A stretch of DNA of 64,000 bases from Octopus vulgaris (taxonomy: Eukaryota). The DNA is taken from NCBI GenBank assembly GCA_951406725.2, contig OX597814.1:151590001-151654000 (forward strand). The letters are read 5' to 3'. Below the pieces are notes generated by a model. That model was not told where the DNA came from, searched no databases, and saw only the letters and a list, made by a program, of their open reading frames with translations. Positions 1,051 through 63,096 of the stretch are shown one piece after another. A program made the translations under genes and the position numbers. Within the stretch, counting starts at the first letter, position 1. Every line of letters begins with the position of its first letter.

Positions 1051-1537
1051 ATGAAATTTTGGAATTGTACTCCCTCTGCAAGTGATTTGAATTTGTGTTG
1101 AAACAAAAAATTACTTTAAGGAAAAGTAATTTAAAAGTCATTTATAACTCACATTTACCGTTACATTTGATTTTTTTTTATAGTATTGAATACTATTAAG
1201 TGTTAAGTGCAGTGAAATTGTATCAGTGACCACATCATAGATGCGCAACAAGACTTTATAGCATAAGATGCACTGTTGTAAAATAAAGCAAAAGTACAGA
1301 CAAACCGTATATATATATATTTTAAATAGATATCACGACTATACAAAAGTTAATTACTCCAATAAAGTTTAATATAATTTTATCGGAAAGATTACTTTAC
1401 CAAGCTTCTTAAAGGGAGATAACTATAAAGTTCTGTTTAGTCCACCAATCGTATTTCCTTTATTATACTTCTTTGGATTCTGCGTATTTACTCCTCTTTG
1501 CACGTAATTTTCATTCAACGTTTCAGCAAAGGTCTCC

Positions 1538-1546: not shown

Positions 1547-1852
1547 CTGACTGGAATCAATTGAACACTTACTACCGTATTATATACGACTACCTAAAAC
1601 CAGATCAAGTGATATCGTGTGCGGAAGGTGTATTGCAGTCTATTGTAGGGACAGCAAACTCAGACCAGGGCGACACTACCTTGGCAAGTAGTGACACAGC
1701 AAATGCTCCAGGTCGGCTGTGTTTTGTGAACAGTCCTGTACAAGTGAGGGTTTTACTTGGATTGCTTGCTTATTTCTTCATCACTATTGTCCTTATCCAT
1801 TTGGCCTGGCTTCTGTACGGATTTGATATAAATGAATTATTCGTACGATCTG
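1543..1852 (+). CDS. TCTA: TCTA-like (T-cell leukemia translocation-altered family) membrane protein, coding exon 1
   Basis: ATG at 1543. QVRVLLGLLAYFFITIVLIHLAWLLYGFDINELFVRSG resembles the remembered human TCTA core ([39 protein letters not shown]). Donor TCTG|GTGAGT after 1852, phase 1. Confidence 0.75.
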
Positions 1853-2413
1853 GTGAGTTACAGAAATTCAAAACACACCTGTATCATTACATTTACGTTT
1901 GTTTATTATTATCATTATTATTAATATTATTTTTTTCTTTATTAACATTTATATACTGCAGTGTCGGTAGTTGGTCGTACATCTACCTGTTTATCTACTA
2001 CTTGACCACTAACATAATCCTACTACATTTACCGTACAGTGGAATTGTGTCAATGAAGTTGTAAATTCACAACCTTTGAAATTATCAACATTCATTCCTC
2101 TTCGCCATTACAATCGTGTTTACACACACAAACACATACATACTCTGTAATCAATATTATTTAGAAATATTCTAGTGTGGCGTGTAATTTATTATTTCGG
2201 TTTTGATAATGATTTTAACTACCCTTGCTCAAGGCCATATTTTATGGAAGTCCATATAATCGTCTTAGTGGGTAGACATCAACAATGGTATGGATTTTTA
2301 CACTTACTTCTGAATGTATTGCTATTAAAAGAAATAGTGTTGACAATATAAATTATATATATATTTATATATACCTATATAAACTCGATAGTTAACGTGT
2401 GTCTGTGTGCGTG

Positions 2414-2449
<36 letters not shown>

Positions 2450-4427
2450 AATATATATATTTACACACACAGAAATCGTTTACAATTTCTTCTATTCAGC
2501 AAATATTGATAACCGCGTGTATTTAGTGAGTTTACTGTTTTAATTAATATCCTGATGACAACATGGATTACATTTAGTGACTTCTATAGTTTATTGTTTG
2601 TGTCTAGTATCTCACCTGATCAACTAATGTCATATGACTGGTACACAATGCCAATCAGGTTATTTATTTAAATGACTTCAGTGAATTTTTGGCTGCAATT
2701 TGCGTCTTGGACTTATTCCACGTGTTGACCGTTTAAGGAAACCTTATGACGATAAAAACCACGTAAACCAATAAACAGACCAATATGTAAGTGGTCTAAA
2801 TACTAAATATATCGTTTGTAACTTTCCCTCCTTCTCTCTTTATACTCTTTCACACAGATAGTTACCCATTCACTGCTGTGTATAAATTAGGAAATTTTCA
2901 TCTGCTATTACTCTGATCTCTATGCACACTTGAAAAATAATAGGCAGTTCGTGATCGCGATGACATGACCATTGGTCTGCTTCGTTAAGGGCCTGACCTG
3001 AGCTATATAAATAACAACACATTGTTGTTTTTTTTTTATATTTAAAGCTGTAGCAGTTATTTCTCTACTCCAAACTATACAAACATATTATTATTATTAT
3101 TATAGCAATAATATTTGCGCAGTTATTTTGTCGATTAAAGCATCATTATCACTATAATTTATTTTTAGTAGAATTAAGTATTTTCTCCATGTAATTCCAA
3201 CGAGAGATGAGATTTTATGTCGTTGTTTGATCTGGCAGAAATAGCTGCTAATTTTCCCCCAAACCACAATTGTCTTGTCGAAAAAGCACACTCTATTGCA
3301 GGAAAGAATGTGTAGTCGTGGCTGGAAAGTCCTTTAATCATAGACCTGTCTGCTCCATAAGAGTTGATTGACTCACGGCTAAACAACAGTAACAAGGGCG
3401 CTTATTCGTTTCTAGGGTTCGATGAAAATGTAAATATTTACTTTATCATCCAGTAGTAGGTATTTTCCAAGTCAAAAAGGAAAGTGAAAATATATATTTT
3501 TTTGTTGTTGATAAATACACATGTTAAACGGATCTAATATCTTTAATACTTCAAATGTACTACCATAAATGTCATTGGTGACACTGACACCAATTTGATT
3601 GTATTTTGAATAAGATACTCTGCCCATATATCGCTGCAGTAGTTCTAGCTGACACTCAAATGCTATTATTTTAATGCTCGCCATGCAGTACACCTAATGG
3701 CTTCAGATTTTGGCACAAGGTCAGCAAGTTAAGGAAATGAGGTTGGTCCAAAACATTGACCTCAGTACTTGATACATTATTTTATTGAAGGGATGAAAAA
3801 TGTTCTCTATGTAATGCATCTAGTAATAAATGAGATTGACTACATGTACAAAAAATATATATATATAGTTTTTCTTGACCTGAGTTGTATACAATGTTCG
3901 AGTCAACAATTTTGCAGTTAAGTAATTTTATTTCCTGTATTGTGCTGTTAACCAGTCTAACTCATTTGGGTAAATCACAACATGTATGATAGATCCAAAT
4001 TAAATGAGAAGAACGGCGAACTGGTATCTCGCCAACTCTCAGTTTGTTATTTTTACTTTTTAGAAAATACTTTCTCGTTCAATTTGCCAGGAAAACACAC
4101 TTTCGAAAAAGTAAATACTTTCACTTTCGCGAGGCTCTGAAAACAATTACCGGCACATCAACGACAAAAGTAGATTCCTGTTCCATTGCCTTGCAATTCA
4201 TGATTTGTTTTCTTCATTTCATTAACTCGAATAAGACCCAGTTCATAAACCCCTCAACAAATTATAACGATGTAAATGTATTGTGAAAGATATCCACTCT
4301 AAAGAAAGGCTGAAATCTTAAAACTTTTGCTTCTGATTAAACACGGGACCTATGCATAGGCTTGTTTGTGTGGTTAAGAACATCACTTTGCAACTTTGTG
4401 GCTTTCAATTCGATCCCAAAGAACGTA

Positions 4428-4643
4428 CTAGGTGGTACTGAAAAGTTCCTGGCTTTAAGGATATTGCAAAGGCCTGGCCGGAGCCCCAACCTTCTGAGTT
4501 CTTTTACAGGGCTTAGAAAAACTGAAGAACTGCTGCAATAAGTGTGTGAATCTGAGAGGGGAATATGTTAAATAAAATCATAATTAATTGATCCTCCTGT
4601 ATTTTCTTTTACCCAAAGCCAGGAACTTTTCAGTACCTCATTG
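4428..4643 (+). mobile_element. Mariner-derived MITE (internal deletion derivative)
   Basis: TIRs GGTACTGAAAAGTTCCTGGCTTT / AAAGCCAGGAACTTTTCAGTACC with TA flanks. Retains the transposase C-terminus GLEKLKNCCNKCVNLRGEYVK*. Confidence 0.8.
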
Positions 4644-5849
4644 TAGTTGCATTGGCACCATGGGCAAGGTTTTCTATAGCTTCGAGTTGACCAAAGCTTT
4701 GTGAGTTTGAAACAGTAGAAACCCATCAGAGAGATTCTGATTGTTCTTAAATTTTAGACTTAATCCATCTACCCATTTAGCACCACCACTGGGTTCCTTG
4801 GTGTCTTTAGCAAAAACGACTCTTGTAAACACTAGGTCCAGATCTCCAGTTTGAAGATAATTTCTTTTCACTGGTCTTAGAGGTCTTGCCTTTCTTGTGA
4901 TTAAATCCATTTAAGTAAATATTACCTTGTAACTAATGAAACCTCAAGTTGAACATCTAGAAACTTCTGCTAAAAAGACAAAAATAGCATGAACAGTAGA
5001 TGAACTTGATTTTTTTTTTAGCCTCAATTCAATTGGGCCTGTGATCAAAGGTGTTCCATCATTGACCAAATTGTATTTTCCCCACCTTCTTGTACTCAAG
5101 ACTACATTATCCAATGTTTGCAGATGTTATTGTTGTAACTTGAGGAAGATTTGGTTACTATTTTTATTAGTCTGAATGATCATGTAGAGGTTTCTTCATT
5201 GGCTCACTAGCTATGGAGTATATCATCTGAATAAATTCAAACACAATTTAATGCTCTACTTATACTGTTGTTTAGCCCTAGGTCAGCTAGTATTCTCATT
5301 GTGATTATACCATTCTCATTGTAGTTGACTACATTGTTCAACCTGTCCTATTTTAAGCTGCCAAGATATTATTCGAGGGAAACTTATATGCTATTACTTG
5401 CAGGTCAAGCAATGATATAAAGACTCCTCCATTTATCTTCCTGTGCCTTATGTTCGCTTGCAATTTATTTTATGAAGAATGTTGAATATGTAATAAAATC
5501 CCCGCCTAAGTATATGCAAGAAAAATGTAGTGGGTTGAGAAGTGGGGTCTGGTTCAAATGCTTACAGCAGGGAAATTTGTTAAAGGCTCTTGAGTTCTAA
5601 GTAATTGATGTTAACTTGAGTGGTGAGCAAGTTCCACCATGCATGCTAAACTGGGCAGTGAGCTAGGCCGATCATCCATGTTAAAAGTAGAGGCACTTGA
5701 AGATATGAAGAGATGGGCCAGTACCAGCAATATGGTGTAATCACTACTGAAGATAGTGTATCAAGTACACCCTCAGTCTTGATATTTTGAACAAGCCGAG
5801 AACTGAAAGCCTCATTTAACCTTGTACAGAGAGTAGCAGTTTACATTTA

Positions 5850-6129
5850 CAAGGTGGTATAAAAAAGTTCCCGGACTAGTTACGTTTAATAAAAAAATAA
5901 CTTATTTACTCTTTACTCTCTGTACCCTTTTACTTGTTTCAGTCATTTGACTGTGGCCATGCTGGAGCACCACCTTTAGTCAAGCAAATCGACCCCAGGA
6001 CTTATTCTTTGTAAGCCTAGTACTTATTCTATTGGTCTCTTTTGCTGAACTGCTAAGTGACGGGGACATAAACACACCAGCATCAGTTGTCAAGCAATGC
6101 TAGGGGGACAAACACAGACACACAAACAT

Positions 6130-6177
<48 letters not shown>

Positions 6178-7185
6178 GACGGGCTTCTTTCAGTTTCCAT
6201 CTACCAAATCCACTCACAAGGCTTTGGTCAGCCCGAGGCTATAGTAGAAGACACTTGCCCAAGATGCCATGCAGTGGGATTGAACCCGGAACCATGTGGT
6301 TGGTAAGCAAGCTACTTACCACACAGCCACTCCTGCACCTAAATTTTAACATCATCTCTCTTGAAATAGTCACCTTGCGCAGCAATACACTGGTCCCAGC
6401 ATTCTTGTCACTTTTGGAATCTGCCCTGGAAGTCATTTTCCATAAGCAAGTCAAGGACCTTCTGTGATTCACTCTTGATCTTGACAACAGTGTTAAAACA
6501 GTGATCTTTGAGCTGCATTTTCATCCTGGGAAAGAGATGGAAATCTGCAGGCACTAAGTCTGAATAGGACTGAGGCAAAAGCGATACCATGTTGTCTTTG
6601 ATAAGAAACTCACAAGTGAAGGGAGCTTAGTGACAGGGTGCATTGTTGTAAAAAATCCAATTCTTCACACTCTGCAGATGTTCTTACTTTCACTGGATGT
6701 CCTCCCTCAAACACTTCAAAATATCATTGTCCTCTAACAATCCTCATGCACAAACTGATGAATTTTCTCCTCATTTCTGGGGGTCACACTTATAGTAGGT
6801 CTTCCAGATTGCTCATCATTTTCCAGGGACATTCTTCCACTTTTGAAGCACCCATGCCACTTGAAACATTGCGTAATACCCATTGCCTTGTTGCTGTAAG
6901 CTTGCTGAAGCATGCTCCATGTCTCTGTTGCAGACTTCCCAAATTTAATGAAAAAAATTTCACATTGGCTCTTTTGTTCCAACTTTTTGTCTATGACAAA
7001 AATTGTAGACTATAACATACGTGATCACAAAAACACAAATTTCACGACTTGCAAAGTAAACACAGTGATGTCACTCAACACTACCTCATAAAGGTCATTG
7101 CTAGCTCTCACTGTGCATGCAACCATGTGCTGCCATCTGTTGGCATGCTACAGAAGTAGTCTGGGAACTTTTTGATACTATCTCA
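5850..7185 (-). mobile_element. Decayed mariner (Tc1/mariner) transposon with nested SINE
   Basis: TIR-like ends with TA flanks. ORF fragments 6734-6982 (HTH, RSGRP-like) and 6408-6590 (YSPDL-like motif and FHLFP). Confidence 0.85.
5910..6337 (-). mobile_element. SINE family A, full length, inserted in mariner
   Basis: Complete head, internal (TA)/(CA) microsatellite and GTAAAAGA-type tail. Confidence 0.9.
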
Positions 7186-7192
7186 TATGTAT

Positions 7193-7800
7193 AAAATAGC
7201 AGCTTACATTTACACATGGAATAGCAGTCAGCTTACATATAGGGTGGCAATCAGCTGCATCCAGACGTGTTTTGTGTAGCCCTGGTGTATGGGCAGGAGA
7301 AGGGATAGAAATACAATTTGAATTCAAATTCACCCATTTGAAATTTCAAATAGCTGGAATTTTTCAAGTGCACAATACCCTGACTTTTGTACATTTGATA
7401 CTGTCTGCATAAATGTCTCTTCTCAGTCATTAAAAAATGTAAAACAATAAAATACAACGCCAACTGTTCTGCTATCACAAAGTATAGAATAACAGTTTAC
7501 ATTTACATATAGAATAACAGTCAGCTTACAGATAGGGTAGCAGTCAACTGCAACCAGACATGTTTTCTGTAGCTCTGGTGTATTGGCAGGAGAAGGAATA
7601 GAAATACAATTTTGAATTCAAATTCACCCATTTGAAACTGCAACTCTTATTATTTTACATGTTTCAGTCATTACACTGCAGCCATGCTGGAATTCTTCAA
7701 GAGCTCAGTACCATGACTTTTGAACATTTGATACTGACTGTGTAAATGTCTCTTCTCTTTCATTAAAAAAAGTAAAACAACAGAATACACAGCTCCAACC
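7193..7800. repeat. Tandem direct duplication, ~300-bp unit x2
   Basis: GGCAGGAGAAGG.ATAGAAATACAATTT.GAATTCAAATTCACCCATTTGAAA and AAATGTCTCTTCTC...CATTAAAAAA each occur twice, about 295 bp apart. Confidence 0.8.
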
Positions 7801-8599
7801 TTTTTGATACCACCAAGTATCATAAAACACATGAGATACAGTCAACATATTGATTATACATATTTACCTGTGATTAAGTAAATAGTCAATATATTTGGCT
7901 TTAGGTTGAGCAGTCCAGTTTTTGAGTGCTTTGTCCTTCACTTGGTGATAACTACTAGCTGCTACTTTGCTCTTTTTTCACATCTGACTAAGAAAATTCA
8001 TGTAAATTGCCCTAGGAAACTGAGGATTTTATCTAAGTTTGTAAAAAAAAAAATCAGAATTTTGCTGACTTTACATATGATAATAATACCAACAATAAGA
8101 TCTAGTTTTATGAAAATTTTAGTTAAAATGTGAAGATGTGATGGCATGTATGTATTTTTTATTTTAAATAAAGTGCCTGTGGCACATAAAAAGCACCCAC
8201 TACACTTTTGAAGTGGTTGGCATTAGGAAGGGCATCTTGCCACATCAGATTGGAGCCTGGTGCAGCCTCCTGGTTTGCCAGTCCTCAATCAAACTGTCCA
8301 ACCTATGCCAGCATGGACGGACGATAATGATGAAAGGTAATTTCTTGCCTACATACAGGGTACAAGCCATATTGTTAGCATATACAAGAGGAAAGTCTAC
8401 CTAAATCTGTATTGGAGAATGGTAGATTTCTTTGTTCCTGTTTCACTTCCTTTAAGAAATGTTGAAAAGAAGGACTCTAAGATTTTTCAGTTCTATTTTA
8501 CTATTATTGACATTTGCTGTTTTGTTAAATTATGCTACCCAAATCCCAAAAGAATATTTTTCTCCCTTGTGTTCTGACCACCCTAACTCTAGCACCCTC

Positions 8600-9650
8600 C
8601 CCCCTCTCTCTCTCGGCCTCACTTTGTCTGTCTGTCTCTCTTTCGATTACCACTTGCTTTGCCAAGACTTCCTCCACCCCCACCCTATATAAACTAGCGC
8701 ACGCACTTGGATTCCCCTACTCGATTTTTAATACCTCCGCCGAAAGAATACGTATCCAGAAGATGCTCTTGTCTAAAGTTGCTAGTTTGCGGTACACCCG
8801 TCCACCTCATCCACCTGTACCGGAAGTTCCTATCCTCTGTCATGCTTTGGTTGTCTCCCATGAACACTTCTAAAGGCTTTACACCATCCCCACCCCTACA
8901 TAGGGTTCATCTCCTATGTAAGGTAGTAATCATATTGTGCATAAATGTGATGGTGTAGTGTATGCAGGTTAAATTGAAGGTTTATGAATTCTGCCAAATG
9001 CGAGCTTTCTTTTCAGTACATGACGCTGCTGTCTCCCGTCCCAGGGTCTCATGGGCCTACACCTCCCACACCCTCAGGGTTGGCACTCTCAATGTCGGCA
9101 CACTGAAAGGTAGGTCTGGTGAGATTGTTGAGATGCTTGAACGGAGGCAATGACTAGTGACTGAGACCATTGGAAATATGCTGTGCTTGAGAAGACCCGG
9201 CAAGCCAAGTGATACCATAACCTGTGGCCTATGCCAGGGGTGTAACCAGCCCATTTATGCATACCTTTCCTTCATTGAACACTAAACTCTGCTTGCGAAG
9301 ACCTGTTGAGGCAAGTGAAATCGAAATCAAATACGATGACAGCACAGCATGTCTGGCATCCATGCTAGTGGAGCGCTAAGAGCACCATCTGAGCGTGATT
9401 GTTACCAGAGTCACTGACTAGCTTCCGTGCCGGTGACACATAAAAAGCATCATTGGAGTGTGATCATTACCAGCATTGCCTTACTGGCACATGAAAAAAT
9501 ATTTGAGTGAGGTTGTTGTCAGTGCCTGTGGACTGGCTCCTGTGCAGGTGGCACGTAAAAAATACCATTTGAGTGTGGCTGTTGCCAGTACTGCCTGACT
9601 AGCCCTCGTGCTGGTGGCACATAAAAGCACCCACTACACTCTTGGGAGTT
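8600..9650 (+). mobile_element. Internally deleted RTE-clade LINE (APE start fused to 3' UTR)
   Basis: LRVGTLNVGTLKGRSGEIVEMLERR is a typical APE N-terminus. It is joined at ~9150 to the 3' tail with GGTGGCACGTAAAAAGCACC repeats. Confidence 0.7.
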
Positions 9651-9874
9651 AACAGTGAAATTTTAAATCCTGCAACCATGATATCATCAATGACATCATT
9701 CCTATGATTTTAAACCCCTTTTGTCATATTTCTGGTGAAATACATTACTTTTGCTTCTGTTAATTTTGAAAATAATGAAAAAATTTAGTAAGACAACTTT
9801 ATCGTTATTAAACTTCTGTTTGGAACAGAAAATAGCATCAAATTTTGTTGGAAAGTTTTTAATTCAGTCCACTT

Positions 9875-10535
9875 TATCCCTTCAGCATTTAAACAGACCA
9901 CATCAGGCCCATATAGTCTACCTGTTATATGTTCAAACTGGCCAGATCTGGCCTCTCACACCTATCCTACAATGTCATTCTATAAAAAATAAAGATAATA
10001 AATAAAGGCGCAGGAGTGGCTGTGTGGTAAGTAGCTTGTTTACCAACCACATGGTTCCGGGTTCAGTCCCACTGCGTGACACCTTGGGCAAGTGTCTTCT
10101 GCTATAGCCTCGGGCCGACCAAAGCCTTGTGAGTGGATTTGGTAGACGGAAACTGAAAGAAGCCCGTCGTATATATGTATATATATATGTGTGTGTGCGT
10201 ATATGTTTGTGTGTCTGTGTTTGTCCCCCTAGCATTGTTTGACAACTAATGCTGGTGTGTTTATGTCCCCGTCACTTAGCGGTTCGGCAAAAGAGACCGA
10301 TAGAATAAGTACTGAGCTTACAAAGAATAAGTCCCGGGGTCGATTTGCTCTATTAAAGGCGGTGCTCCAGCATGGCCGCAGTCAAATGACTGAAACAAGT
10401 AAAAGAGTAAAGAGAGTAAGAGTATCACATCTTCAATATCTCAAAAGCTAAGAGATAATACATAATTAATTCAAAACGATATGAATAAATAAATAAGCAT
10501 GACATATGACAGAATAATCTGAATAATAAAGGGTA
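9875..10535 (+). mobile_element. piggyBac-type MITE interrupted by SINE A
   Basis: Family with CCCTTTAGCATT...AATGCTAAAGGG termini and TTAA flanks. Other copies at ~10680-10880, 25975-26155, 37470-37665, 40381-40604, 46058-46600 and 46662-46880. Confidence 0.7.
10005..10421 (+). mobile_element. SINE family A, full length (tRNA head with A/B boxes)
   Basis: A box TGGCTGTGTGG, B box GGTTCAGTCCC, CCTTGGGCAAG motif, tail GAAACAAGTAAAAGAGTAAAGAG. Confidence 0.9.
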
Positions 10536-13500
10536 AAAATTGAAAGCCTGGAGTGGTCTCTGGTGAGTTGGTACTGGATGAACCACTTATTACAAAATGT
10601 CAATGGAACTCATTTATCCAGAAGATGAGTTCCCCATGTAAATCATTGTTTTACATCCATGCTCCATGCTGGCATAGATTTAACCCTTTAGCATTTAAAC
10701 TGGCCATATCTGGCCTAAATATTCAACCTGTTTTATGTTCTAACTGGCTAGATCCAACCTCTCATATATGTCCTACAATGTTAGTCTAAAAATAAACAAT
10801 CACATAATCAAAATCTTAAAACTTCAAGATAATGCAGGATAAATTCAAAACAGAATAATGTGAATGTGAATGCTAAAATAAAAATAATGTGAATGCCAAG
10901 TCAGCTGTTTGGAGTTACTGGTTTCCAAGACAGATTGGAGGAAACCATGTTTTATTCATATGTTTTCATTTGGTGAGGTTTCTACTGCTGTATGCTTTCC
11001 TTAATACCAACCACTTTACTAAGTGTAGTGAGTGCTTGTTATTGTGGCACCAGCACAAGAGAAGTTGCTTTGGCTACTCTAAGCTATGTCCATTTATTCT
11101 AGGTATACTTGGGCAAAGTTAGTATGAGTGAAATTAAAGAGAGACTGTAGAGTTTTATATCCACTGTGTCAGAAAAACTGGTTGCAGCTTAGAAGATGTA
11201 ATGCTCTGCAGTCTCACTCTAATTTCACTCATGTCAACTTTCCCTTGAGAAATACATTATGACCAGTGATATCTAACAACATCTGATTGTCTGGTTTATA
11301 CTGTGACATGCACACACAAAAAGCACTGTAAGCATGACCCTTCTGGAGTTTTTCTGAGAGTGAATGAACTGAAAGAAAGCTGTGACTCATGGGGGTATGA
11401 GGCATATTAACACAGCCCTTATGTTCCTGCCTATTTGGCATTGTTGATTCAATGATGACTTTTCTGACATTAGACATTTCAATGTTTCTCTTGTTTACTC
11501 TCTCTCTCTGTTTATGTGGGTGAATGTATTTATGTATATGAGGAGAGAGGAAAGTGTTTATGTCAACATAAACGCTTTATGTGGCACGTCACATAAAGAG
11601 TTCTCATGCGGTGCCATGTAAGAAAGCACTCATGCTGGCACTGTGTAAAAATGTACCCGTGCCAGTGCCACATGAATCTCACCCATGTTGGCACCATTTA
11701 AAAAAGCGTCCTGTACACCGTGTAAAGTGGTTGGCATTAAGAAGGGCCTCCAGCCATAGAAACCATGCTAAAACAGATGGAACCTGATGTGTAGCCTGCT
11801 GGCTCGCCAGATCGTCAGACCATGTGACCCTTGCCAGCATGGAAAATGAACATTAAGTAATGATGATGTGTTCAATTAATAAATTGTAATGTCTCGTTCT
11901 TTCACCCTCTCTTGCTCTCTCTGTGTATATTTCTGCACCTACTTGTATATTTGCATGTTTGCCTCCAGTGCAAAATGTTCTTTTGCTAAAACTGGTTCAG
12001 TGTCCTGTCAACAATGCCAAATTGTCAGTGTCCAAACAGTTGCATCCAGTCATTTCATTCTAGATATATAGGGAATCCCAGTAGTTAGCAGTGTATCAAG
12101 ATATACAGTTATCCTCAGACTAGGGGCCTAGTCTAAAGGCTAGCAACAGAATAGACTGCTAAAGGTAAACAAGGGGCAAGTATGTTTTAGAATGTGGATG
12201 AAGTTTGGAAAAAGAGAAAACAGTGAATAACTATGCACAAGGGAAGTTCAGCTTGGGTGAAACATGTTGTTGTTGACTTGTCTCATGTAAAAAGTTATGT
12301 GACTGATACTATAAGGTTCAGATACTTATTGGAAATGAGATGATTGAATGCTGTTGTTTGGATGGTGAACATTTGGCAAGGCTGACTTGACATTCAACCA
12401 GTTGTGGCAAGAGTACATTTTGGCATTAGCGGACAAACATACATGCATGCATGCAGAAATACACACATAGACATATGTGCCAGTGTCACGTAAAAAGCAT
12501 CAATGCTGGTGCCACATAAAAGCACCTGTGCTGGTGCTGTGTACCCAGTACACTAAATGATGATGATGACATAAAAAGAGTGGGAGAGAGACATTACAAT
12601 TTAATAATTGAATATTATTGTAATAAACACTTTTCCTCTCCTCACACACAATAAGAAATAAGCTCACACACCTAAACAGAGAGAGAGAGAGAGAAAAGAG
12701 AGGAGGGAAAAAATGAAAGAAACATTAAAATGGTGTCAAATAAGCCAGTGTTATCTCAGCCACATCAAATAGGAGGCACCAAAGTGGCTGTTCACATATG
12801 TCTCCTACCCAAGTATTATACATCTCATCAGTCATGTAATAGAAATGTAGTTATCTTCTATAATGGCATCATGGAAACAAAATCAGTTTTCCACCTCTTT
12901 TACTACTATAACTGTTTTACTCTTCTGAACTAGTTAACATTATAATCTCTCCCTTGAGTCCACTAGACTACTATGTTTCTTCTCTTACCATCAATCACAA
13001 AGTTTCTCTCATCTTTCTGTTGCTACACCATACATTTCTCTCCTGGCCATGCTTTTCCTGCAATGACCTGCAGATGTTGAAGCTGAAACACCAACAGCAT
13101 ATATCTCACCAGTCTAGAAGTGTGGCCTGCAAAAATCATGTATAACTGACTCTGCACCTCTGATTAAATTAATAAAAAATAGCGATATTTTTTAATCTTT
13201 ATTTGTTATATTTCTGTACACTCTGTAAAGTGGTTGGTGTTTGAAAGAGCATCCAGCTGTAGAAACCATGTCAGCTTGGCACAGTTCTTTGGCTTACCAA
13301 CCCATGCTAACATGGAAAATGTTAACTGATGATGTTTTTATTTTATTTGTTTTTGCATTTGATATTAGTATATTCCATGGCTAAAGAACAGCTCAACATC
13401 ATTATCTTAGACAGTTTTGTATGATGTTAAAGGTATTCTATAAAATCAGCTGAATATTTGAAACACTTTTGTTAAAAATATTGTTATGTTATCTTTGATA

Positions 13501-13570
13501 TTATCTCTCTGTATTCATTTTATAAAAAGAATATTGAAAACTGTAACTTTTGATATTCTAATTTTTACAG

Positions 13571-13686
13571 GAATCCAACAGCCACAAGCTCAGCGACCTC
13601 GTCACAAGGCCAGTTATAGTGAAAAGATATCTCGGTCTGCACAAGCTTCAAATATTCCAATAAATAAGTCAAATTTCATGGATTAA
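13571..13686 (+). CDS. TCTA: TCTA-like protein coding exon 2 (C-terminus, stop TAA 13684-13686)
   Basis: Acceptor ATTTTTACAG|GA. Phase 1 completes Gly in frame with exon 1, giving GIQQPQAQRPRHKASYSEKISRSAQASNIPINKSNFMD*. Total 141 aa. Confidence 0.7.
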
Positions 13687-13776
13687 AAGTTGATAATTAG
13701 GAAAAAAAAATCAGTAGTCTAAATTATTAATTTATCTTTTAATTGAAATATTTCAACTCAAAAAAACCAAATCACG

Positions 13777-13993
13777 ATGCCAAATAATTTTTTTGATAAA
13801 ATTAAATTAGATCGCTTCTTTAGGAAAGCTGGCCCTGGTCATAAATTAGCACAAGAAAAGGAAAGTCATGCCAGTTCATCTTTGCATTCCAATTTATCCG
13901 GTGGCCCTTCATCATTACCCTCAGCCTCTAAAACAGAATCAGAACAGAGAGCTGCAGCTGCTGCCATTGCACGGTTCAATCAATCAAAATCAG
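13777..13993 (+). CDS. UBXN6: UBX domain-containing protein 6, coding exon 1
   Basis: MPNNFFDKIKLDRFFRKAGPGHKL matches the UBXN6 N-terminus, and RAAAAAIAR is a VIM (p97-interacting) motif. Donor CAG|GTATAT, phase 1. Confidence 0.9.
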
Positions 13994-14439
13994 GTATATA
14001 TATAAATTCTTTTATCTTTTCTTTTACTTGTTTCAGTCATTGGACTGTGGTCATGCTGGGGCACTGCCTTGAAGGGTTCTAGTTGAAGAAATTGACCTCA
14101 GTACTTATTTTTTTAAAGTCTATTACTTATTGTATCGGTCTCTTTGCCACACGTGTGTGTGTGTGTGTACGTATATAATTAATCAGACTCCAAAACAATT
14201 TGTAGAATTTATATTGGATTTGTACCAAGTTGGATTCAAATTAAAGATCGTCTACACCTATATCTATTTTCTTTTTTTTAAACTTTATCTGTTGATTTTG
14301 CAAATATTGAATATATATTTTATATATATTCTTTGCTTAGATTGTACCGATGGACTTGGATGTTTGACATCCCTTTGAAGGATTTCGTTCCTCACCTCTT
14401 TTATATATATATGTGTTTGTGTGTGTGTGTATTCGCCTG

Positions 14440-14632
14440 GCCCCCGTGCCGGTGGCATGTAAAAAGCACCCACTACACTCACAGAGTGGTTGGCGTTAGG
14501 AAGGGCATCAAGCCGTAGAAATATTGCCAGATCAGACTGGGCCTGGTGCAGCTTCTGGCTTCCCAGACCCCTGTTGAACCATCCAACCCATGCTAGCATG
14601 GAAAGTGGACGCTAAACAATGATGATGATGAT
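14440..14632 (+). mobile_element. RTE LINE 3' tail / RTE-mobilised SINE ending in (GAT)n
   Basis: GGTGGCATGTAAAAAGCACCCACTACACTC...AGGAAGGGCATC...GATGATGATG. Related copies near 8180, 11600, 13220, 34370-34823, 37140, 41750-42070 and 45690. Confidence 0.8.
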
Positions 14633-14916
14633 AGATACACGTATATGTGTGTATGTATGTATGTATATGTGTGTATATAGTTGAAATTTACAGAATAACA
14701 AAAGACAAAGACAAGTGTATAAACAACAAGCAGGTGTATTAGTTTGACACTTGGGAAGTGGGAAGGTGAGAAAGTCTTTTTATGTTTCGAGTCTATGCTC
14801 TTTAACAGAAAGGAAACAAGGAAAAATCAAAGTTCAAACAAATTTCAAATAGGTTCAAACGTGATGGTGTATTGCAGCGATTTTTCATCATGTGTGTGTA
14901 TATATATATATATATA

Positions 14917-15329
14917 TATGAGCAAAACAGCCCCTGTCCAATGGACGGTGCTGTGTTGTCAAACATTTAAACCAAGTTTTCTCAAAACAATTTGTCCGAC
15001 TATCCCATAGGCCTCCCCTTTGAGAAACACTGATTTAACCTAAATTTAAGACACCAAACAGGCCGGCTTTTTTTGCGCAAACTGCACATGCATTTTTCTC
15101 GCGTATGCATAGTATTGATCACAACAACTGATGTACTTGCACCTACAAATGCATGTTCCCACGGCTTTATCGATCGCATTCTCACCTGGAATCGATTTTT
15201 GTAATTTTTTCAAGACTTATACACGCCCTGATACCGTCAGTATCTACATATCAAATTTGAGTGCAATCAGATGGAGGATGCCCGAGATCCTAGAAGACAC
15301 ACACACACACACTGACACAGAATGGATTT

Positions 15330-15345
<16 letters not shown>
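14917..15345 (-). mobile_element. Non-autonomous Helitron-like element
   Basis: Terminal hairpin CAGC..GTCCA-A-TGGAC..GCTG at one end and (CA)n plus TTTTATATA at the other. A partial inverted copy lies at 28176-28297. Confidence 0.5.
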
Positions 15346-15372
<27 letters not shown>

Positions 15373-15739
15373 GATGATGGGCTTCCACACAGTTTCTGCT
15401 TACTAAATTCACTCACAAGTTATGGTTCAGCCTGTGGTTATTGTAGAAGAGACTGCCCAAAGTGCTGTACATTGGGACCAAATCCAAAACCATGTGACTG
15501 CTAAGCAAGCTTCTTAACCCCACAGCCATATCTGTATCTAGCACCCAGTACACTCTGTAAAGTGGTTGGCATCAGGAAGGGCATCTTTTATGCCATCAAA
15601 TGCAGCAATCTCCAAGCTCATGTCTGAGTTCTTGAACATTTACAATAACAAAGCAACATTTAGTATTGAAATAAGGATTAAAGACTATGCAGATGAAGGG
15701 AGATTATTTTTAGTTGTTTATATCACATTGACCAAATAT

Positions 15740-16140
15740 TCTTTTCTACACTAGGCACAAGGCCCGAAAATTTTGGGGAGGGAGCCAGCTGATTAATTAG
15801 ATCAACCCCAGAACGCAACTGGAACGTAATTTATCGACCCTGAAAGAATGAAAGGCAAAGTCGACCTCTGTGGAATTTGAACTCAGAACGTAAAGACAGA
15901 TGAAATACCTATTTCTTTACTACCCACAAGGGGCTAAATACAGAGGGGACAAACAAGGACAGACAAACGGATTAAGTCGATTACATCGACCCCAGTGCGT
16001 AACTGGTACTTAATTTATCGACCCCGAAAGGATGAAAGGCAAAGTCGACCTCGGCTGAATTTGAACTCAGAACGTAATGGCAGACGAAATACCACTAAGC
16101 ATTTTGCCCGGCATGCTGTTTCTGCCAGCTCACTGCCTTC
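15740..16140 (-). mobile_element. SINE family B (Meta-domain-like core), with internal unit duplication
   Basis: Reverse complement of GAGTTCAAATTCCGCCGAGGTCGACTTTGCCTTTCATCCTTTCGGGGTCGATAAA, present twice. Confidence 0.8.
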
Positions 16141-16519
16141 ACTGACCAAATATTGCCTCTGTAATATAACTATAAGTGTCTCCTCCACCCAATTTTACAT
16201 CCGTTTTTCATGCTAGGCTGAAATGAATACATATTATTAAGGCATTTTTTTTACAAACTTCTTAATCACATAGTTATTCCTGTTGTTTCTCCTTAGGTTT
16301 CTACATAAATATTTCCTTTTGATATATTTTTTAGGCATTGAAGACCTTTACTATATTTTAACTATTTTCTCTCACATTTCCTAGAATTGATGTTTCTTAC
16401 TTACCTTTCCACATTACTTTCTATTGTGGTTATTAGTTTCTATCAGTGTACAATTTTGCTGATTCAGAACTCATTATTGCTTCTCATCCCATGTCTATTT
16501 AAGATTTATCCATATTATA

Positions 16520-16905
16520 TCTCTTTTACTTGTTTCAGTCATGTGACTGTGGCCATGCTGGAGCACTGCTTTTAGTCGAGCAAATCGACCCCAGGACTTA
16601 TTCTTTGTAAGCCTAGTACTTATTCTATTGGTCTCTTTTGCTGAACCGCTAAGTTACAGGGACGTAAACACACCAGCATCGGTTGTCAAGCGTCGTGTGT
16701 GTGTGGGGGGGGGGGGACAAACACACACACACATATATACGACGGGCTTCTTTCAGTTTCTGTCTGCCAAATCCACTCACAAGGCTTTGGTCGGCCCGAG
16801 GCTATAGTAGAAGACACTTGCCCAAGGTGCCATGCAGTGGGACTGAACCCGGAACTATGTAGTTCGTAAGCAAGCTACTTACCACACAGCCACTCCTACA
16901 CCTAT
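16520..16905 (-). mobile_element. SINE family A, full length
   Basis: Same family as 10005-10421. Confidence 0.9.
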
Positions 16906-17076
16906 ATATGATGGTATGAAATTTCTAATTGAAAGAGATCAGTATAAAAGCCTTTTTAGCTTTATTTATTTTTTTTAATGCATTAGTTACAATTACTTTA
17001 AGAAATCTAAATGTTCAAAAGTTAAAGTAAATTTTAATAATCAAATTTTTCATTAAACTTTGTTATATTTTCACAG

Positions 17077-18176
17077 GGGAATGCCGGCCTGTTATGAAAA
17101 CTAGAGTGCGTAGTGGAACTAAAACTAGCACCACAGACCACCAACAATCTCCAGATACTTCTGCCAAAGCAGGGGAGTCTGAAAAGAGTAACACCGAAAG
17201 TTGCCCCTTTCTCTTATTTACATGTCCTGATATTGGACCTGCAGTGCTTCCTAAACAAGAAATTAATGAATATATCCGAGAGTTTCTATATAACTCCCTT
17301 GAAGCACAGCCTGAAATGACCTCGACCTTGATGATTCAGACTCTGAATAAAAATAAAGAAGCCGTAAAAGTTTGTGTTGACATCTTAACAAAATATATAG
17401 ACAACCTTATTAACAACCCCGGTGAGGAAAAATTCAGGAAATTCCGACTTAATAACCGAGCGTTTCAGGAGAAGGTCAACCCTATGGAAGGGAGTGAAGA
17501 ATTTCTACTTACTTGTGGTTTTGAGAGGAAAAGTCTAAAGCTTGATGATCAACCTGAAGAAATGTATTTTATCATTCCAGAAGAAAAAGCTCAAAACGTT
17601 GACTATCTGAAACATATGAAAGACTGTCTTCTATCAGCTGAACCAATTCGACCTCAGCTTGATCGAGCCTTGCGAGTATATACCCCTCAACATATGCCAA
17701 ATTTTGTAATACCTGATGACTTCTACAATCTCACTCCAGCTGAACTCAAGAGAGAACAACAGTTACGTAGTGAAAACACAGAAAGGATTGAAATTCTTCG
17801 AACGAAAGCCATGCGAGAACGTGACGAGAAACGAGAACTTCGTCGTTATCGTTACACTATGATACGTATTCGTTTTCCTGATAGTGTTGTCTTGCAAGGA
17901 ACCTTTTGGGCTCAAGAAAAATTAAGTGATCTGAGGAAATTTGTGCAAGACAATTTAAGACTTGATTGGATACCATTTAATTTAGTGAATCCAACAGGAC
18001 ATAGAATTGAAGAAGACTTGACACTAATTGAACTTGGCCTTGCACCAACTGCTGTGGTTAATTTCATTGTTGATGAAGACATAATTAATGATCTGGCCCT
18101 TCAGCCAGGAACTGCTAATAAAGCTGGATCATTTTTGAAGTCTGATATTCAATGCTTACTTCAGGAATTTCCCTAA
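17077..18176 (+). CDS. UBXN6: UBXN6 coding exon 2 (PUB and UBX domains)
   Basis: Acceptor TTTTCACAG|GG, phase 1 in frame. PUB domain (KYIDNLINNPGEEKFRKFRLNNRAFQEKV), PDDFYNLT/LRTKAMRE linker, UBX domain (IRIRFPDSVVLQGTF...LIELGLAP). Total 438 aa. Confidence 0.95.
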
Positions 18177-18725
18177 ATTGCCTTAATATTATTTTTGAAC
18201 ATTAATTTAAAACAAAAATTGAAAATTAAAAAAAAAGAACAAAAGCAAAAAAAAAAAAGCAGAAGCAAAAACAAAACAACAAACATACTAAAACACAAAA
18301 TATTTCAAGGCTCACTTATCAAGGATACTATATGTTGAATATTTTGAACTGATTTAAATGACTGATATATCACTGGTTAAATTTTTATTATCAGAACACT
18401 TTTCCTGCTTACTAACACTTGACAAGATCGTTTTTTAGAGTAACTCTACAAGAAAAAAATATTCTATTTTCTATTTTTCACCAAACCATGTAAATTCATT
18501 ATTAAGTTCATGTAGTGTGCATTTCCCATATGAGTTATTTGAAATTGAAGAAATTTATCATAGAATATTAATCAGCGATTATTATAATTGCAGCCAAGTA
18601 AGGTATTTGTGAAAACTAGCTGTAGATAGGAATTATATAACATTATTATAGACTAATGCTTTTAATGCGCACCAACTTGAGAGCCCCACTGATACAAGCT
18701 TTCCATTTTGAAGTGTCCAAGTCTA

Positions 18726-19225
18726 AATAAAAACTTTCCATTGTAACTTCTTGTAAGGACCTTTGCGCTGGCTCAGTCATGTACATTGCATGCTAGATGA
18801 AACGATCCTGAAAGACCTCCTGCATGGAGATTTGTTTTAAGCCACTGTTAATTATTTTATTAAATTTATCATTATTTTCTAAATTAATTGAAACAACAGC
18901 AGTGTATTTCATTAGAAATATAACTACAAATGGGTTAAACCCAAATCACACTAACATTCATTGCTGCAGTTGTAAAAAGCAGTTTCGTTCAAATAGTAGA
19001 TTTTGACAATCTAATGGCTTGTATTAGTCAGTCTGTCAGTAATAACTTGATATCATTATAAACTATATGCAATAAAGATAATCAGGAAATGGTGAGAATG
19101 AAAGAGACTTCAGTTTAGTAACCGTTTTAAATACCATTTTATGAAGAATGAACTTTTAATTTTAGATTTGTATTATTTTAGGGAAGTGCAATGGATGTTT
19201 ATCTGTAAAGGAGAAGAAGAATAAA
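18726..19225 (+). terminator. Candidate UBXN6 polyadenylation signals
   Basis: AATAAA at 18726, 19071 and 19220 in repeat-free sequence after the stop. Confidence 0.35.
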
Positions 19226-20179
19226 AAAAATAAATTTTTGAAGCATTTTAAAACTCTGCCATTATACTTCTATGATTTTAAAAGGCAATATTTGGGCAGT
19301 GTGATATGGACTGAAAAATGCCCTTCCTTTATCTGTATAATCTTTAATCTTGTTATTTCCACACTAAATGTTGCTTTGCTATTGCTTAGCTTCAAGAATT
19401 TGGGTATTAAAGCTTGGGGATTATTATTTTTAATCGCAGGAGCTTGATCATGTCACTTATAGTGGATGGAAAAGATAAGCAGAGCACTTGTTAACCTTGT
19501 ATCTACATCACTAAGAGAAGAAAATTCATAATATAAAGCTGGATATATGTGATAGAGAAATTACCTATCAAGAATTGGAAAGTTATTTCGAAAACGGAGT
19601 GTTCAGTTCCCTACTTATATTTTTCTCAAACAGACCATGAGATTGGTTAAATAAATGATTTTGTTCTGAGAATATTTCTGAATTTTTAATTGATAATTGT
19701 TCTGCCTTTGATGACATATGGTATGTTTGTTATTGTTTAGCCCCAGGTTAGTCCTGATTGAGCAGACCTATGATCAAAGTTGTCAATGTCATAGCTATCT
19801 TATGTTTTTGTATATCAGAGTCTACATTGTCCAGTTTGTCCTTGCTTTTTTTAAAGACAGTATTGTGGAATTTCAGGGAGGTTTGACATCTTTAGCAGGT
19901 TGAATGACCCCATATAGGCTCCTTCAGTTTATGGTTTGAGATAGTGGTGAGTCTTTGGTGGGTTGGCAGAATTAAAAGCATCAAAAAAGCTTTGCAGTAT
20001 TTAGTTGACACTCTGTGTCAACTAAAATTGACTGACTCTATGTTCTGAGATCAAATTTCATCATAGTCAAGTGTGCTTTCCATTCTTATGGAACTGATAA
20101 AGTGCTAATTAAGTGAACAGGTCAGTGATATTGACTAATTTTATGCCTTGTACCTAAGCTAGAAACAATTATTATGACT

Positions 20180-34160: not shown

Positions 34161-36979
34161 TTAGGTTCTCTGGAAAATTTTGAGTGTTTTTAAGTTAAAC
34201 CATTTAACACTTCATTGAACACACTTGAAACGTAACAGTTAAAACTTTGGCATAGCTTTAAGTGGTAGTGCATCTCTTCTTTGTTTCTGACTAAAAATAG
34301 ATTTATCTTTCATTCTGGTTACCCTTTATTGACATTTGAAATGGATAACCAAAAATTTCATATTCATGTTGTGCCGCCTCGACTGGCTTCCGTGTCGGTG
34401 GCATGTAAAAAGCACCATCCAGCCGAAGCCAGTGCCGCCTCGACTGGCTTCCATAAAATGCACCATCCGAATTGTGGCCGATGCCAGCGCCGCCTCGACT
34501 GGCTTCCGTGTTGGTGGCACGTAAAAAGCACCATCCGAATCGTAGCCGAAGCCAGTGTCGCCTTGACTGGCTTCCATAAAATGCACCAATCCGACCGTGG
34601 CCGATGCCAGCCTCGCCTGGCACCAGTGCAGGTGGCACGTAAAAAGCACTCACTACACTCACAGAGTGGTTGGCGTTAGGAAGGGCATCCAGCTGTAGAA
34701 ACTTTGCCAGATAAGACCGGAGCCTGGTGCAGCCTTCTGGCTTCCCAGATCCCCGGTTGAACCGTCCAACCCATGCTAGCATGGAGAACGGACGTTAAAC
34801 GATGATGATGATGATGATGATGAATGTTTTTCTTTTTAAAAAAAAAGAGAGAAATGTTGCAAAGACTTGCAAAATCATTTCTGAAGTTTATGGTGATGAT
34901 GTTGTAGGCTAATCAATTGTTCAAAGGTGGTTTGCAAAACTTAAAGCTGGAGAGTTTAGCTTGGAAGATGACAGTCACAGTGGAAGACCTTCAAAACTGG
35001 ATGAAAATGTTTTTTTGAAAGCAAAAATCAAAGAAAGCTCAAATATTGTGACTAGAGAAATTGCAGAAGAGTTGGAAGTTTCTAAAAGTATGGCTCAAGT
35101 ACACCTGGTGAAGCTAGGATACATTTCTTGCTATAGTGTATGGGTTCCTCAGAAACTCTCAGAAAAGGATTAATTGGTTTGGTATTCCGTTTGTAATAAG
35201 CTTTTGAAATGGAATGAAAAAGCATGCCTTTATTGAAACAACTTGTGAATGGAGAGGAAAAATGGATTGTATACAAAAATGTGGTGTGAAAAAGATCCTG
35301 AAGTTTGTGTAAACAGTAACCAAAGACAAATATCTATGCCAAAAAAGCTACACTCTGCATTTGGTGGGATCATAAAGGTATTATTTATTAATAGCTTCTC
35401 CCACAAAGCCAGACCATTAATTCTGATGTGTACTGTCGTCAGCTGGCTAATTTGAACTAAAAAAAAAAAATCAAAGAATTGAGGCTGGAGATTGCCAACA
35501 GGAAAGGAGTAGTGTCCCAACAAGACAATGCCTGACCACATGTCTTTGGCCCCACCAAACAAAGTTATGTGAACTTGGCTGGGATCTCTTATCCCATCCA
35601 CCATAGTCTCCTGATATTGTGCCATCTAACTACTACTTGTTTTTGTCTTTACAGAACCCATTGTAAGGAAAAACCTTTTAACAATTTAGATGGAATCAAA
35701 ATGCATCTAGATAGCATTTTTTCTTCAAAGCTAGTCAAATTTTATGCTGATGGAATACTTAAATTGCCTGATAGATGAGCAAAGGTCTTTAATAATAATG
35801 GAAATTATCAGGTCATTAAGAATGAAATGTCTGATTTTTCTTGTATTGTTTATGAATATGAGTTCTGTCAAGGAACCAATGCACCCCAGACAGCTCAAAA
35901 CATCAATGAGGTGTTTGGTGAAGATGTGGCAAATGAGCACACTGTACATTGATGGTTTGAGAAGTTCCGGTCTGGTGACTTTACTGTTGAAAATCAGCCC
36001 CTTGGTAGACTTGAGACCAAGGTGGATAATGTAGTGGAAGCAGATACCTCTCAAACTACACATGAGTTAACAGCAAGGTTTGACGTTTCGATTCCAACTA
36101 AATAGGACCATCTGAAACAAATCAGCAAAGTAAAGAAGCTGGACAGGTGGGTACCACACAAACTGAATGAGCATCAATTGACATGTTGTCTTGAAACTTG
36201 TTCTTTGCTGTCACGCCATAAAAGCGAACCATTTTTGCATTGTATCGTTACATGTGATGAAAAACTGGATTCTTTTCAACAATGGCAAGCGTTCTGCATG
36301 GTGGTTGGATAGAGACAAAGTGCCAAAACACAATCCAAAAAAGAATATTCACCAAAAAAAGCTAATGGTGTCTGTTTGGTGGCCCAGCGCTGGTGTCATC
36401 CACTACAGCTTCATGAGACCTGTCAATTACAGCGGATGTATACATCAACTAACTGGATGAAGTGATGAGTGAACTTGCAATTAAACAACTGAGATTGGTC
36501 AATAGAAACAGGCCAATTCTCTTGCAAGACAATGCTCAACCATATGTTGTACAAAGAACGGTACCCCAGTTACAGGAACTGAACTTGGAAGTACTCTGTC
36601 ATCCACCATATTCACCAGACCTTGCATCAATTGACTATCATGTTTTCCAGGCATTAGACAAGGAAAAAAACTTCAAATCTGAAGAAGATGCAAAAACGGC
36701 CTTTCCTGATTTCATCAACTCTTGTTCTCCAGAATTTTTTGCTACCTGCATAAATAAGCTACTGATAAAATGGCAAAATTGTGTTGATAATTTAGGTGCA
36801 TACTCTGATTAACTGCATTGCTTTTTGCTAAGATAAAGTAAAATAAACTTTCAGTTCAAAATCAGACATTTCATTCTTAATGAGCTGATATTTCATCAAA
36901 TAAAATTTATTGAAAGGTCCAATTATTTATATCCCTTTTTGCATTTTAAAAAATGCTCAGAACTTTCTGGACAACCTAA
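34161..36979 (+). mobile_element. Decayed mariner (outer) carrying nested RTE tail and second mariner
   Basis: TIRs TTAGGTTCTCTGGAAAATTTTGAG / CTCAGAACTTTCTGGACAACCTAA, with transposase remnants HSGRP and WVPQKL. Confidence 0.85.
35808..36888 (+). mobile_element. Inner mariner, decayed (DD34D type)
   Basis: TIRs TCAGGTCATTAAGAATGAAATGTCTGATTT and its reverse complement, TA duplicated at 35806 and 36889. Motifs WVPH, LQDNA and HPPYSPDLASIDY. Confidence 0.9.
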
Positions 36980-37954
36980 TTCTAAGCTGCAAATGACCAT
37001 ATTTCTAATAATACACAACCTAAATGCTGCAATTAATTTTTAAAATAGTCAAGAGTTAAATGAAAATAACAGACGTTTTTATTTATTATGCTACTGATAT
37101 CTCACATCATTGTTTATGTAGTCAATAATTAAGAAATGGCACGGAAAAGCACCCATTACACTATCAGAGTGGTTGGCATTAGGAAGGGCATCCAGCCATA
37201 GAAAACTATGCCAAATCAGAGTGGAGTCTGGTGCAGCCTTCCAGCAGGCCAGCCCAGTCAAACTGCCTGACCCATGCCAGCATGGTCAACAGATATTAAA
37301 TGATGATGAGTACTGATGTAATTATAAAATGCAGTTAGTACTGTCTATAAATGTGTGGAGATAATATAGTTTCAAAAATACTCTTTAAACCTCAACTAAC
37401 ATTTTACTGTTTTTGAGTCATAGATTAAAAAAAAAAAATGTTATAGGTCATAGGTATGCTTACTAGCAAACGTAATGCTTATTTATTCACATTGTTTTGA
37501 ATTAATTATGCATTAACTTATAGATTTGAGATTTCAATGAGGTGACTGTATTTTTGAAGAATGACATTATAAGGTAGGTGAGAGCGACTGGATCTGGAGG
37601 ATTATAACTTAGAACATGTAGAATATTTATCAGGGCTGGATACAGCCAGTTTGAATGCTAAATGCTTAATTAAAACAAGTCTGGGCTAAACAACCCTGTA
37701 GGCTGCCTGGGTTGTTCTTAGATATCATAAGAACTCCTATTGCTGCTTGTATGTTTAGCACATCTAAATTCTTTGTTGTTTAAGGCTCTGTCACAGATCC
37801 CACAGTGTTTTTATTGCACATATTATATACTCCGAATATCTAATACTGATATTTTGCCTAATCCTTCACTGTGTATCAAGCATTCAAACTGTCACAGAAT
37901 AAATTTTGCAAAATAATTCAAATAATTTAGATTTAAAAAGAAAAAGATACAAAC

Positions 37955-38217
37955 CTGCCACAAAAATGTAAAATTGGATAGCAAGTGTAAGTCTTGAAAC
38001 CTATTAAAAGTACAGCTACAAGGATCGAGACATCTGGGTTATTGTAAGATAAGAGAATGTCACTTTTGATTTTGGAACCAAATGTTAAGTAGCCACATGT
38101 TGCCATAACTGTGTAAGTAATTATACAAAGGGCAAGAGCCACAGCAATCGTCTTAGAAAATTCCCGTAGTGTTCTCTTTTTTAGACAAGAGTAAATGGGT
38201 ATAACACTAACATGGCA
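37955..38217 (-). CDS. SLC38A7: SLC38A7-like exon
   Basis: CHVSVIPIYSCL...GYLTFGSKIKSDILLSY...YPILHFCGR, phase 0 to 2. Confidence 0.93.
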
Positions 38218-63095: not shown

Positions 63096-63096
63096 T

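Follow-up and report, generated by a model that had tools for sequence, protein, structure and literature searches.

In Octopus vulgaris, a TCTA-like membrane protein and UBXN6 are, in our judgment, likely encoded by one mature bicistronic mRNA. This mRNA would be ancestral to protostomes, and translation of UBXN6 would probably depend on ribosomes bypassing the upstream starts by scanning or reinitiating downstream of them. The locus lies in a 64,000-nt stretch of contig OX597814.1 (positions 151,590,001 to 151,654,000 of the forward strand), which is analyzed here as a whole and called the window.

Exon 1 (1440-1852, +), delimited by spliced contigs, consists of an AUG-free 5′ leader of at least 103 nt and the first coding part of the TCTA-like ORF (1543-1852, +; 103 codons plus 1 nt). 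Its start codon at 1543 has G at -3 and T at +4. An 11.7-kb GT-AG intron in phase 1 (1853-13570, +), evident in both the sequence and the spliced contigs, leads to a shared exon (13571-13993, +). This exon holds the C-terminal TCTA coding part (13571-13686, +; stop TAA at 13684-13686), a 90-nt intercistronic spacer (13687-13776, +), and the first coding part of UBXN6 (13777-13993, +; 72 codons plus 1 nt), whose ATG at 13777 has A at -3. The spacer is AUG-free and 80% A+T, carries two extra in-frame stops, has a fold z of -0.96 against shuffles, and contains four AG dinucleotides, all without a pyrimidine tract. After a second phase 1 GT-AG intron (13994-17076, +), UBXN6 continues (17077-18176, +) to its stop at 18176. 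The 3′ UTR (18177-19670, +) has AATAAA at 19650, and contigs of two runs terminate at 19670. The 438-aa UBXN6 product is identified by its PUB (about 17355-17603; E 7e-24) and UBX (about 17850-18059; E 1e-6) domains and by named relatives called UBX domain-containing protein 6. A prior sequence-only reading had proposed the phase 1 join of exon 1543-1852 to the acceptor before 13571, the stop at 13686, the 90-nt gap to a UBXN6 ATG with A at -3, and the donor after 13993. It also described the octopus spacer as AT-rich with neither ATG nor pyrimidine-tract/AG acceptor. Each of these points was verified.

The same reading proposed a single transcription unit, and the assembled contigs agree. Four of 20 RNA-like runs were examined, one per study and spanning two organism codes; their RNA nature is our guess and is not on record. 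In each of the four, one contig extends from exon 1 through an unbroken shared exon and the UBXN6 coding exon into the 3′ UTR, bridging the junctions 1852>13571 and 13993>17077 gap-free in record coordinates. At contig level, two complete non-overlapping ORFs lie on one spliced transcript in all four runs. The spanning contigs measure 2079, 3430, 3059, and 3241 nt; their 5′ ends, in ascending order, are 1440, 1508, 1557, and 1623. Their depth is 18-149, compared with 2-9 for most listed intronic pieces. The longest (X5) equals exactly 1440-1852 + 13571-13993 + 17077-19670 and ends 20 nt past AATAAA. The contig of run X14, which has another organism code, carries 24 unaligned letters at its 5′ end (window 1484-1508). 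Assembled contigs are not single molecules and do not reveal internal starts. A start site inside the shared exon would yield the same contig, as would a TCTA-only mRNA ending at the AATAAA/ATTAAA motifs at 13659/13682, and both points count against the bicistronic reading. The joint and loose-end tables are dominated by repeats, and minor isoforms and poly(A) ends are unreadable there.

Elsewhere in the window, an amino-acid transporter exon (37936-38343, -; Pfam Aa_trans, E 5e-15) is the likely downstream neighbor. There are also a LINE-type reverse transcriptase ORF of 739 aa (54795-57014, +), a shorter RT fragment (62483-63121, +), and mariner-type transposase fragments (34913-36457, +). 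By eye, a long MITE-like inverted repeat (1-450) lies about 1 kb 5′ of exon 1; it is highly repeated in the runs.

The first ORF was suggested to be TCTA, and the spliced 141-aa protein scores 27.7 bits against Pfam PF15128, a marginal pass of the gathering cut-off of 27. Exon 1 alone scores 21.2 bits (E 2.5e-4), under the cut-off, and PF15128 is matched in 8/8 cephalopod sequences. Like vertebrate TCTA, the octopus protein is small and predicted to cross the membrane once. It has the one hydrophobic stretch described beforehand (residues about 70-91; best 19-residue Kyte-Doolittle mean 2.54), followed by W..YG. Hydropathy places the predicted transmembrane segment at 1750-1815 (+), ending in the conserved AW..YG motif, in which A88, W89, and Y92 are invariant across 19 sequences. 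The named ESM Atlas clusters nearest to the protein are chordate TCTA (0.83-0.87), taken as leads only; a search of the Atlas by structure added no information (TM at most 0.32). Protein searches by word index and by HMMER returned cephalopod and unnamed metagenome relatives alone, with no named insect or vertebrate protein, and one match (P0126) was discarded as a repeat artefact. The ORF is single-copy in the octopus genome, where two further matches reach merely E 3-5. In human, TCTA is a separate gene, not known to be linked to UBXN6.

Cephalopod annotations contain both proteins. The 141-aa product is identical, letter for letter, to the annotated O. vulgaris protein CAI9716141.1, and UBXN6 is the consecutive accession, CAI9716142.1. 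In Argonauta hians the pair occurs twice, again with consecutive accessions (GAB1597387/388 and GAB1600917/916). These two pairs (P0002, P0003, P0006) represent a duplication or two haplotypes. Octopus and Argonauta are 76% identical in ORF1 and 72% in UBXN6. The expectation that annotation would treat TCTA as 5′ UTR fails for O. vulgaris and Argonauta, where the ORF is listed as a protein. The TCTA-like cluster (one member) includes RefSeq copies from neither O. sinensis nor O. bimaculoides, whereas the UBXN6 cluster has both. A predicted O. bimaculoides UBXN6 isoform X2 (P0130, XP_014772240.1; 389 aa) carries an alternative N-terminus spliced onto the last acceptor, and no exon matching that N-terminus was found within the window.

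The TCTA-UBXN6 linkage recurs in other animals. A UBXN6 alignment gave 79 metagenome loci, drawn from the best 80 of 156 confirmed stretches, and all counts of metagenome loci below refer to these. When a profile built from cephalopod ORFs only was searched against 6444 six-frame ORFs, the top 22 all lay upstream of UBXN6 on the same strand. After one profile iteration, these 22 had E of at most 4e-17, versus 0.098 for the next. Every transcript-like single-ORF UBXN6 contig with a leader longer than 300 nt (17/17) has a TCTA-like ORF just upstream; these contigs come from copepods, other arthropods, and annelid-like animals. Searched in the other direction, a profile from arthropods only picks octopus exon 1 as the sole significant ORF in the window (E 7.5e-6 among 1582 ORFs). 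With this profile, the scores of real ORFs span 8.8-31.8 bits, and those of reversed decoys stay at or below 2.4. PF15128 matches 13/18 metagenome first ORFs at E<1, two of them above the cut-off. These two, the annelid-like L004 (40.5 bits) and L008 (31.7 bits), resemble octopus in this respect, unlike the arthropod first ORFs, which score below it. The profile searches thus find in arthropod and annelid-like loci the arrangement that had been predicted upstream of other UBXN6 genes.

Lineage labels of these loci derive from a UBXN6 FastTree tree of 69 sequences, from which pieces <290 aa and 14 redundant rows were omitted and whose deep nodes are weak. L004, L007, and L008 group with the annelid Owenia (0.95), L025 and L052 fall among insects (0.998), and the rest form an arthropod clade. 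Gene structure is also shared. Counted in codons after the Y of the YG motif, the phase 1 TCTA intron falls at codon 12 in octopus, L052, and L040 and at codon 11 in L007; a squid-like protein continues across this point. L007 and L052 also have the shared-exon layout of octopus, with a single exon containing the end of TCTA, its stop, a spacer of 16 or 41 nt, and the start of UBXN6. Purifying selection on the upstream ORF, which had been anticipated, is seen in copepod pairs. The dN/dS of the first ORF is 0.02-0.17 in six of seven measurable pairs, 4/11 pairs being saturated. The seventh pair, at 0.49, counts against our main reading. The simplest reading of the common gene order, the common intron, and the homology is that the arrangement was inherited from the protostome ancestor. 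That ancestor lived over 540 million years ago.

The linkage is not seen everywhere. Among 38 loci that include the UBXN6 start, 22 have the TCTA ORF, adjacent in 21 and separated by an intervening zinc-finger gene in L040, while 16 lack it. The 16 misses count against the main reading and consist of five leaders <150 nt and 11 intron-bearing contigs with 0.5-3.4 kb upstream. Eight of these 11 come from a single annelid-like clade in which a splice acceptor precedes the ATG by about 60 nt, and here the TCTA exon may be outside the contig or have been lost. Nine annelid-like or bryozoan-like genomic loci (L015, L016, L017, L021, L027, L045, L049, L054, L062) show a short leader exon ahead of the UBXN6 start codon, with no TCTA ORF within 0.5-3.4 kb; their linkage may have been lost, or the first exon may be more distant.

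Copepods provide a separate view of the mRNA. Ten copepod contigs have the calanoid spliced leader at their 5′ end and cover both ORFs without a break. This leader matches CopepodSL as given in Table 1 of PMC4664967. Its motif occurs ahead of TCTA in the ten loci and nowhere else in the set. These leader contigs show the message unsplit in animals capable of trans-splicing. An operon resolved by the spliced leader was rejected, since the leader is never on the downstream cistron and the octopus spacer has no acceptor; L040 and L050 are a possible exception. In this long-branch lineage a C2H2 zinc-finger gene, which we take to be YY1-like, lies directly upstream of UBXN6 (L040:1192-3985, L050:1-972). 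In L040 it stands between TCTA and UBXN6 on one strand, with an AG acceptor 2 nt before the UBXN6 ATG. The separation counts against the main reading, and the two loci may be an operon resolved by trans-splicing.

The sequence-only reading also pointed to the Drosophila UBXN6 orthologue. That gene is Gint3, which proves to be already published as dicistronic with upstream CG42306. Hayden and Bosco 2008 (PMC2276209) list a conserved 121-aa uORF on CG5469/Gint3, with a Ka/Ks of 0.10, and trace it as far as Aedes. File S1 of Crosby et al. 2015 (PMC4528330) lists CG42306-Gint3 as 'all di/polycistronic', with 5 nt from stop to start; octopus differs in its 90-nt spacer and 11.7-kb intron. In the accessible text of these papers, the pair is traced only to Diptera and the name TCTA does not occur. 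The fly uORF printed in the PMC2276209 supplement shows, by eye, the hydrophobic segment of the TCTA-like ORFs together with their W..YG and F.R pattern, and its final ten residues bar one equal the tail of the insect locus L052. The profile-tested chain runs from octopus through the arthropod ORFs to L052; fly CG42306 was compared by eye alone and is absent from the protein-search matches. In the accessible sections of their paper, Reim et al. 2014 (PMC4219662) give Gint3/Armless as the fly UBXN6 orthologue, describe mild Armless overexpression as dominant-negative, and report that Gint3 knock-down is not rescued by CG42306. A further comparison is MOCS2, the only one of 44 conserved fly pairs traced beyond arthropods in Table 1 of PMC2276209. 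Like TCTA-UBXN6, MOCS2A/MOCS2B puts two conserved ORFs on one mRNA. In contrast, the two MOCS2 products are subunits of a single enzyme and their mRNA is bicistronic in vertebrates too, whereas no complex containing both TCTA and UBXN6 is known. A complex prediction for the octopus pair, run without alignments, was uninformative (score 0.00).

How UBXN6 is translated was read from start codons. The statistics use 14 of 18 rows, with four near-duplicate copepods dropped and the genomic loci L048 and L068, whose ORF1 start is ambiguous, left out; all 18 rows give the same picture. Half of the 14 rows are one copepod clade, and the statistics overstate independence accordingly. Internal Met is rarer in ORF1 (0.88 per 100 aa) than in UBXN6 (1.88). 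Out-of-frame AUGs number 18 against 31.7 expected in ORF1 and 86 against 82.2 in UBXN6, and the spacers contain two against 15.7 expected. Position -3 of the UBXN6 start is A in 14/14 rows (18/18 of all rows), compared with 7/14 for the ORF1 start. In octopus alone the depletion is not significant (2 vs 3.3, P 0.26). The spacers are 1-126 nt long (median 72-74), have 33-100% A+T, and place the ORFs in frames 0, 1, and 2. Spacer and leader stretches fold no better than shuffles in 5/5 cases, four of them spacers. Spacer length, frame, and fold are thus not conserved, and this speaks against readthrough, against an IRES, and against any stop-start element of fixed form.

Short ORFs occupy the region ahead of UBXN6. 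Octopus has three AUGs between the two starts (ORFs of 8, 37, and 2 codons), two with A at -3, and pure leaky scanning therefore fits octopus poorly. The first is an internal out-of-frame mini-ORF of 8 codons (1703-1729, +; A at -3), a candidate reinitiation shunt. The second is an out-of-frame ORF of 37 codons across the intron (1832-13663, +; A at -3), which may damp UBXN6. Octopus has no upstream AUG in 1440-1542. In each of the ten copepod contigs with the spliced leader, another AUG, out of frame and with A at -3, precedes the TCTA AUG by 5-17 nt. The uORF that it opens has 9-15 codons and ends inside TCTA, and the leader behind the SL is merely 8-29 nt. It lies in the first 90 nt of L013, L026, L029, L031, L032, L033, L037, L044, L047, and L051; L035 and L025 have similar uORFs overlapping the TCTA start.

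Similar features have known counterparts. Leaky-scanning bicistrons of green algae are reported, in the available text of PMC11892635, to have a weak first start and AUG depletion before ORF2, and the depletion seen here has the same signature. In KSHV ORF35-ORF36, a short uORF lowers ORF1 and lets ORF2 start by reinitiation, according to the accessible part of PMC3561293, and the overlapping copepod uORF resembles this route. Both are mechanistic analogues without homology; the mechanism here is read from sequence and not from mutants.

From these start-codon patterns, leaky scanning combined with reinitiation is the probable route to UBXN6. A single promoter at exon 1 would give one mRNA subject to cap-dependent scanning. 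Some ribosomes would initiate at the TCTA AUG, a start of moderate strength, and yield the membrane protein. Other ribosomes would bypass this AUG or translate a short out-of-frame ORF (1703-1729 in octopus, the 9-15-codon uORF in copepods). Scanning would then resume through the AUG-poor ORF and the AUG-free spacer, and the UBXN6 AUG would be used. The outcome would be co-expression, with UBXN6 kept low. For octopus, leak plus reinitiation appears likelier than pure leak, with UBXN6 output damped.

An unlikely alternative, though the strongest, keeps the bicistronic mRNA and has UBXN6 translated by coupled termination-reinitiation after the full TCTA ORF. Spacers that are short (5 nt in fly, 1 nt in L035) and almost AUG-free favor this route, which would also skip the three internal AUGs of octopus. 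However, neither spacer length nor frame is fixed, and no fold above shuffles was found near the stop in the four spacer stretches. Reinitiation after 110-155 codons is usually inefficient. Coupling also leaves the AUG depletion inside ORF1 and the overlapping copepod uORF unexplained.

Two overlapping monocistronic genes are more doubtful still. A hidden promoter in or near the shared exon would make UBXN6, and the long form would be a TCTA mRNA with UBXN6 as its 3′ UTR. Besides the blindness of contigs to internal starts, this idea draws on the alternative N-terminus of the predicted O. bimaculoides isoform and on short UBXN6 leaders in five metagenome contigs. The CpG profile bears on it in both directions. 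CpG o/e is 0.74-1.07 over 700-2800, an undepleted, promoter-like region around exon 1 with no strand assigned. It falls to 0.28 over 5000-12000 and 0.06 over 12000-13570, with only 3 CpG in the 1571 nt of DNA before the shared exon, and then rises to 0.54-0.65 over 13571-14500. The rise is what a hidden promoter could invoke, but the strong depletion directly before the shared exon speaks against one. We read the depleted stretch as a methylated gene body, as is known from invertebrates, and the profile points to one promoter, at exon 1. In addition, the 1-16-nt spacers of L035, L014, L048, L068, and L007 leave no room for a promoter, and AUG avoidance before UBXN6 is expected only where ribosomes scan. 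The copepod leader sits only ahead of TCTA, and FlyBase, as represented in PMC4528330, has no monocistronic form.

Internal ribosome entry in the A/U-rich spacer has a slight chance of driving UBXN6. The octopus spacer is indeed 80% A+U and unstructured, but neither the length nor the composition of spacers is conserved, and upstream AUG depletion would be needless. A membrane-anchored TCTA-UBXN6 fusion made by readthrough or skipping of the shared exon is hardly credible as the functional product. In its favor, joining 1852>17077 would preserve the frame, as both introns are in phase 1 (a 469-aa membrane-anchored PUB-UBX protein), and the two octopus ORFs share a frame, but three stops separate them, frames vary among species, the exon is kept in all four contigs with no skipping seen, and PF15128 occurs in 0/120 listed UBXN6 homologues of 200-639 aa. 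Stop-codon readthrough itself is rejected on account of the three stops and the unconserved frame.

As far as found in the accessible literature, the arrangement had been described only for flies and mosquitoes. The TCTA identity of the partner and the likely protostome-wide age appear new. No literature pairing TCTA with UBXN6, UBXD1, Gint3, or CG5469 was found in the openly accessible papers searched, and a TCTA call for CG42306 may already exist elsewhere. The reported role of TCTA is in osteoclast fusion (PMC4033988), within the available text, and further accessible TCTA literature includes PMC11905932 and PMC4439957; no TCTA-p97 link was found in the literature. A functional tie between TCTA and UBXN6 is offered as a hypothesis only.

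We tentatively extend the main reading, to a version that we regard as possible and somewhat doubtful. The pair would have been bicistronic since the insect-mollusc ancestor and split later in vertebrates, CG42306 would be the unrecognised TCTA orthologue, and the pairing would persist because TCTA acts in the same membrane-associated p97-UBXN6 pathway and its ORF sets the dose of UBXN6. If so, this would be among the oldest animal bicistronic mRNAs. Bicistronic mRNAs common to arthropods and spiralians are rare, and TCTA-UBXN6 adds a second beside MOCS2. RNAi against Gint3/UBXN6 in these animals would strike both cistrons, and annotation pipelines omit the first protein. The overlapping copepod uORF opens the translation route to direct test. 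Given the dominant-negative effect of Armless overexpression, as described in the accessible sections of PMC4219662, damping by a long upstream ORF is a candidate reason for the position of UBXN6. The orphan human TCTA would gain a likely fly orthologue and a possible connection to p97-UBXN6.
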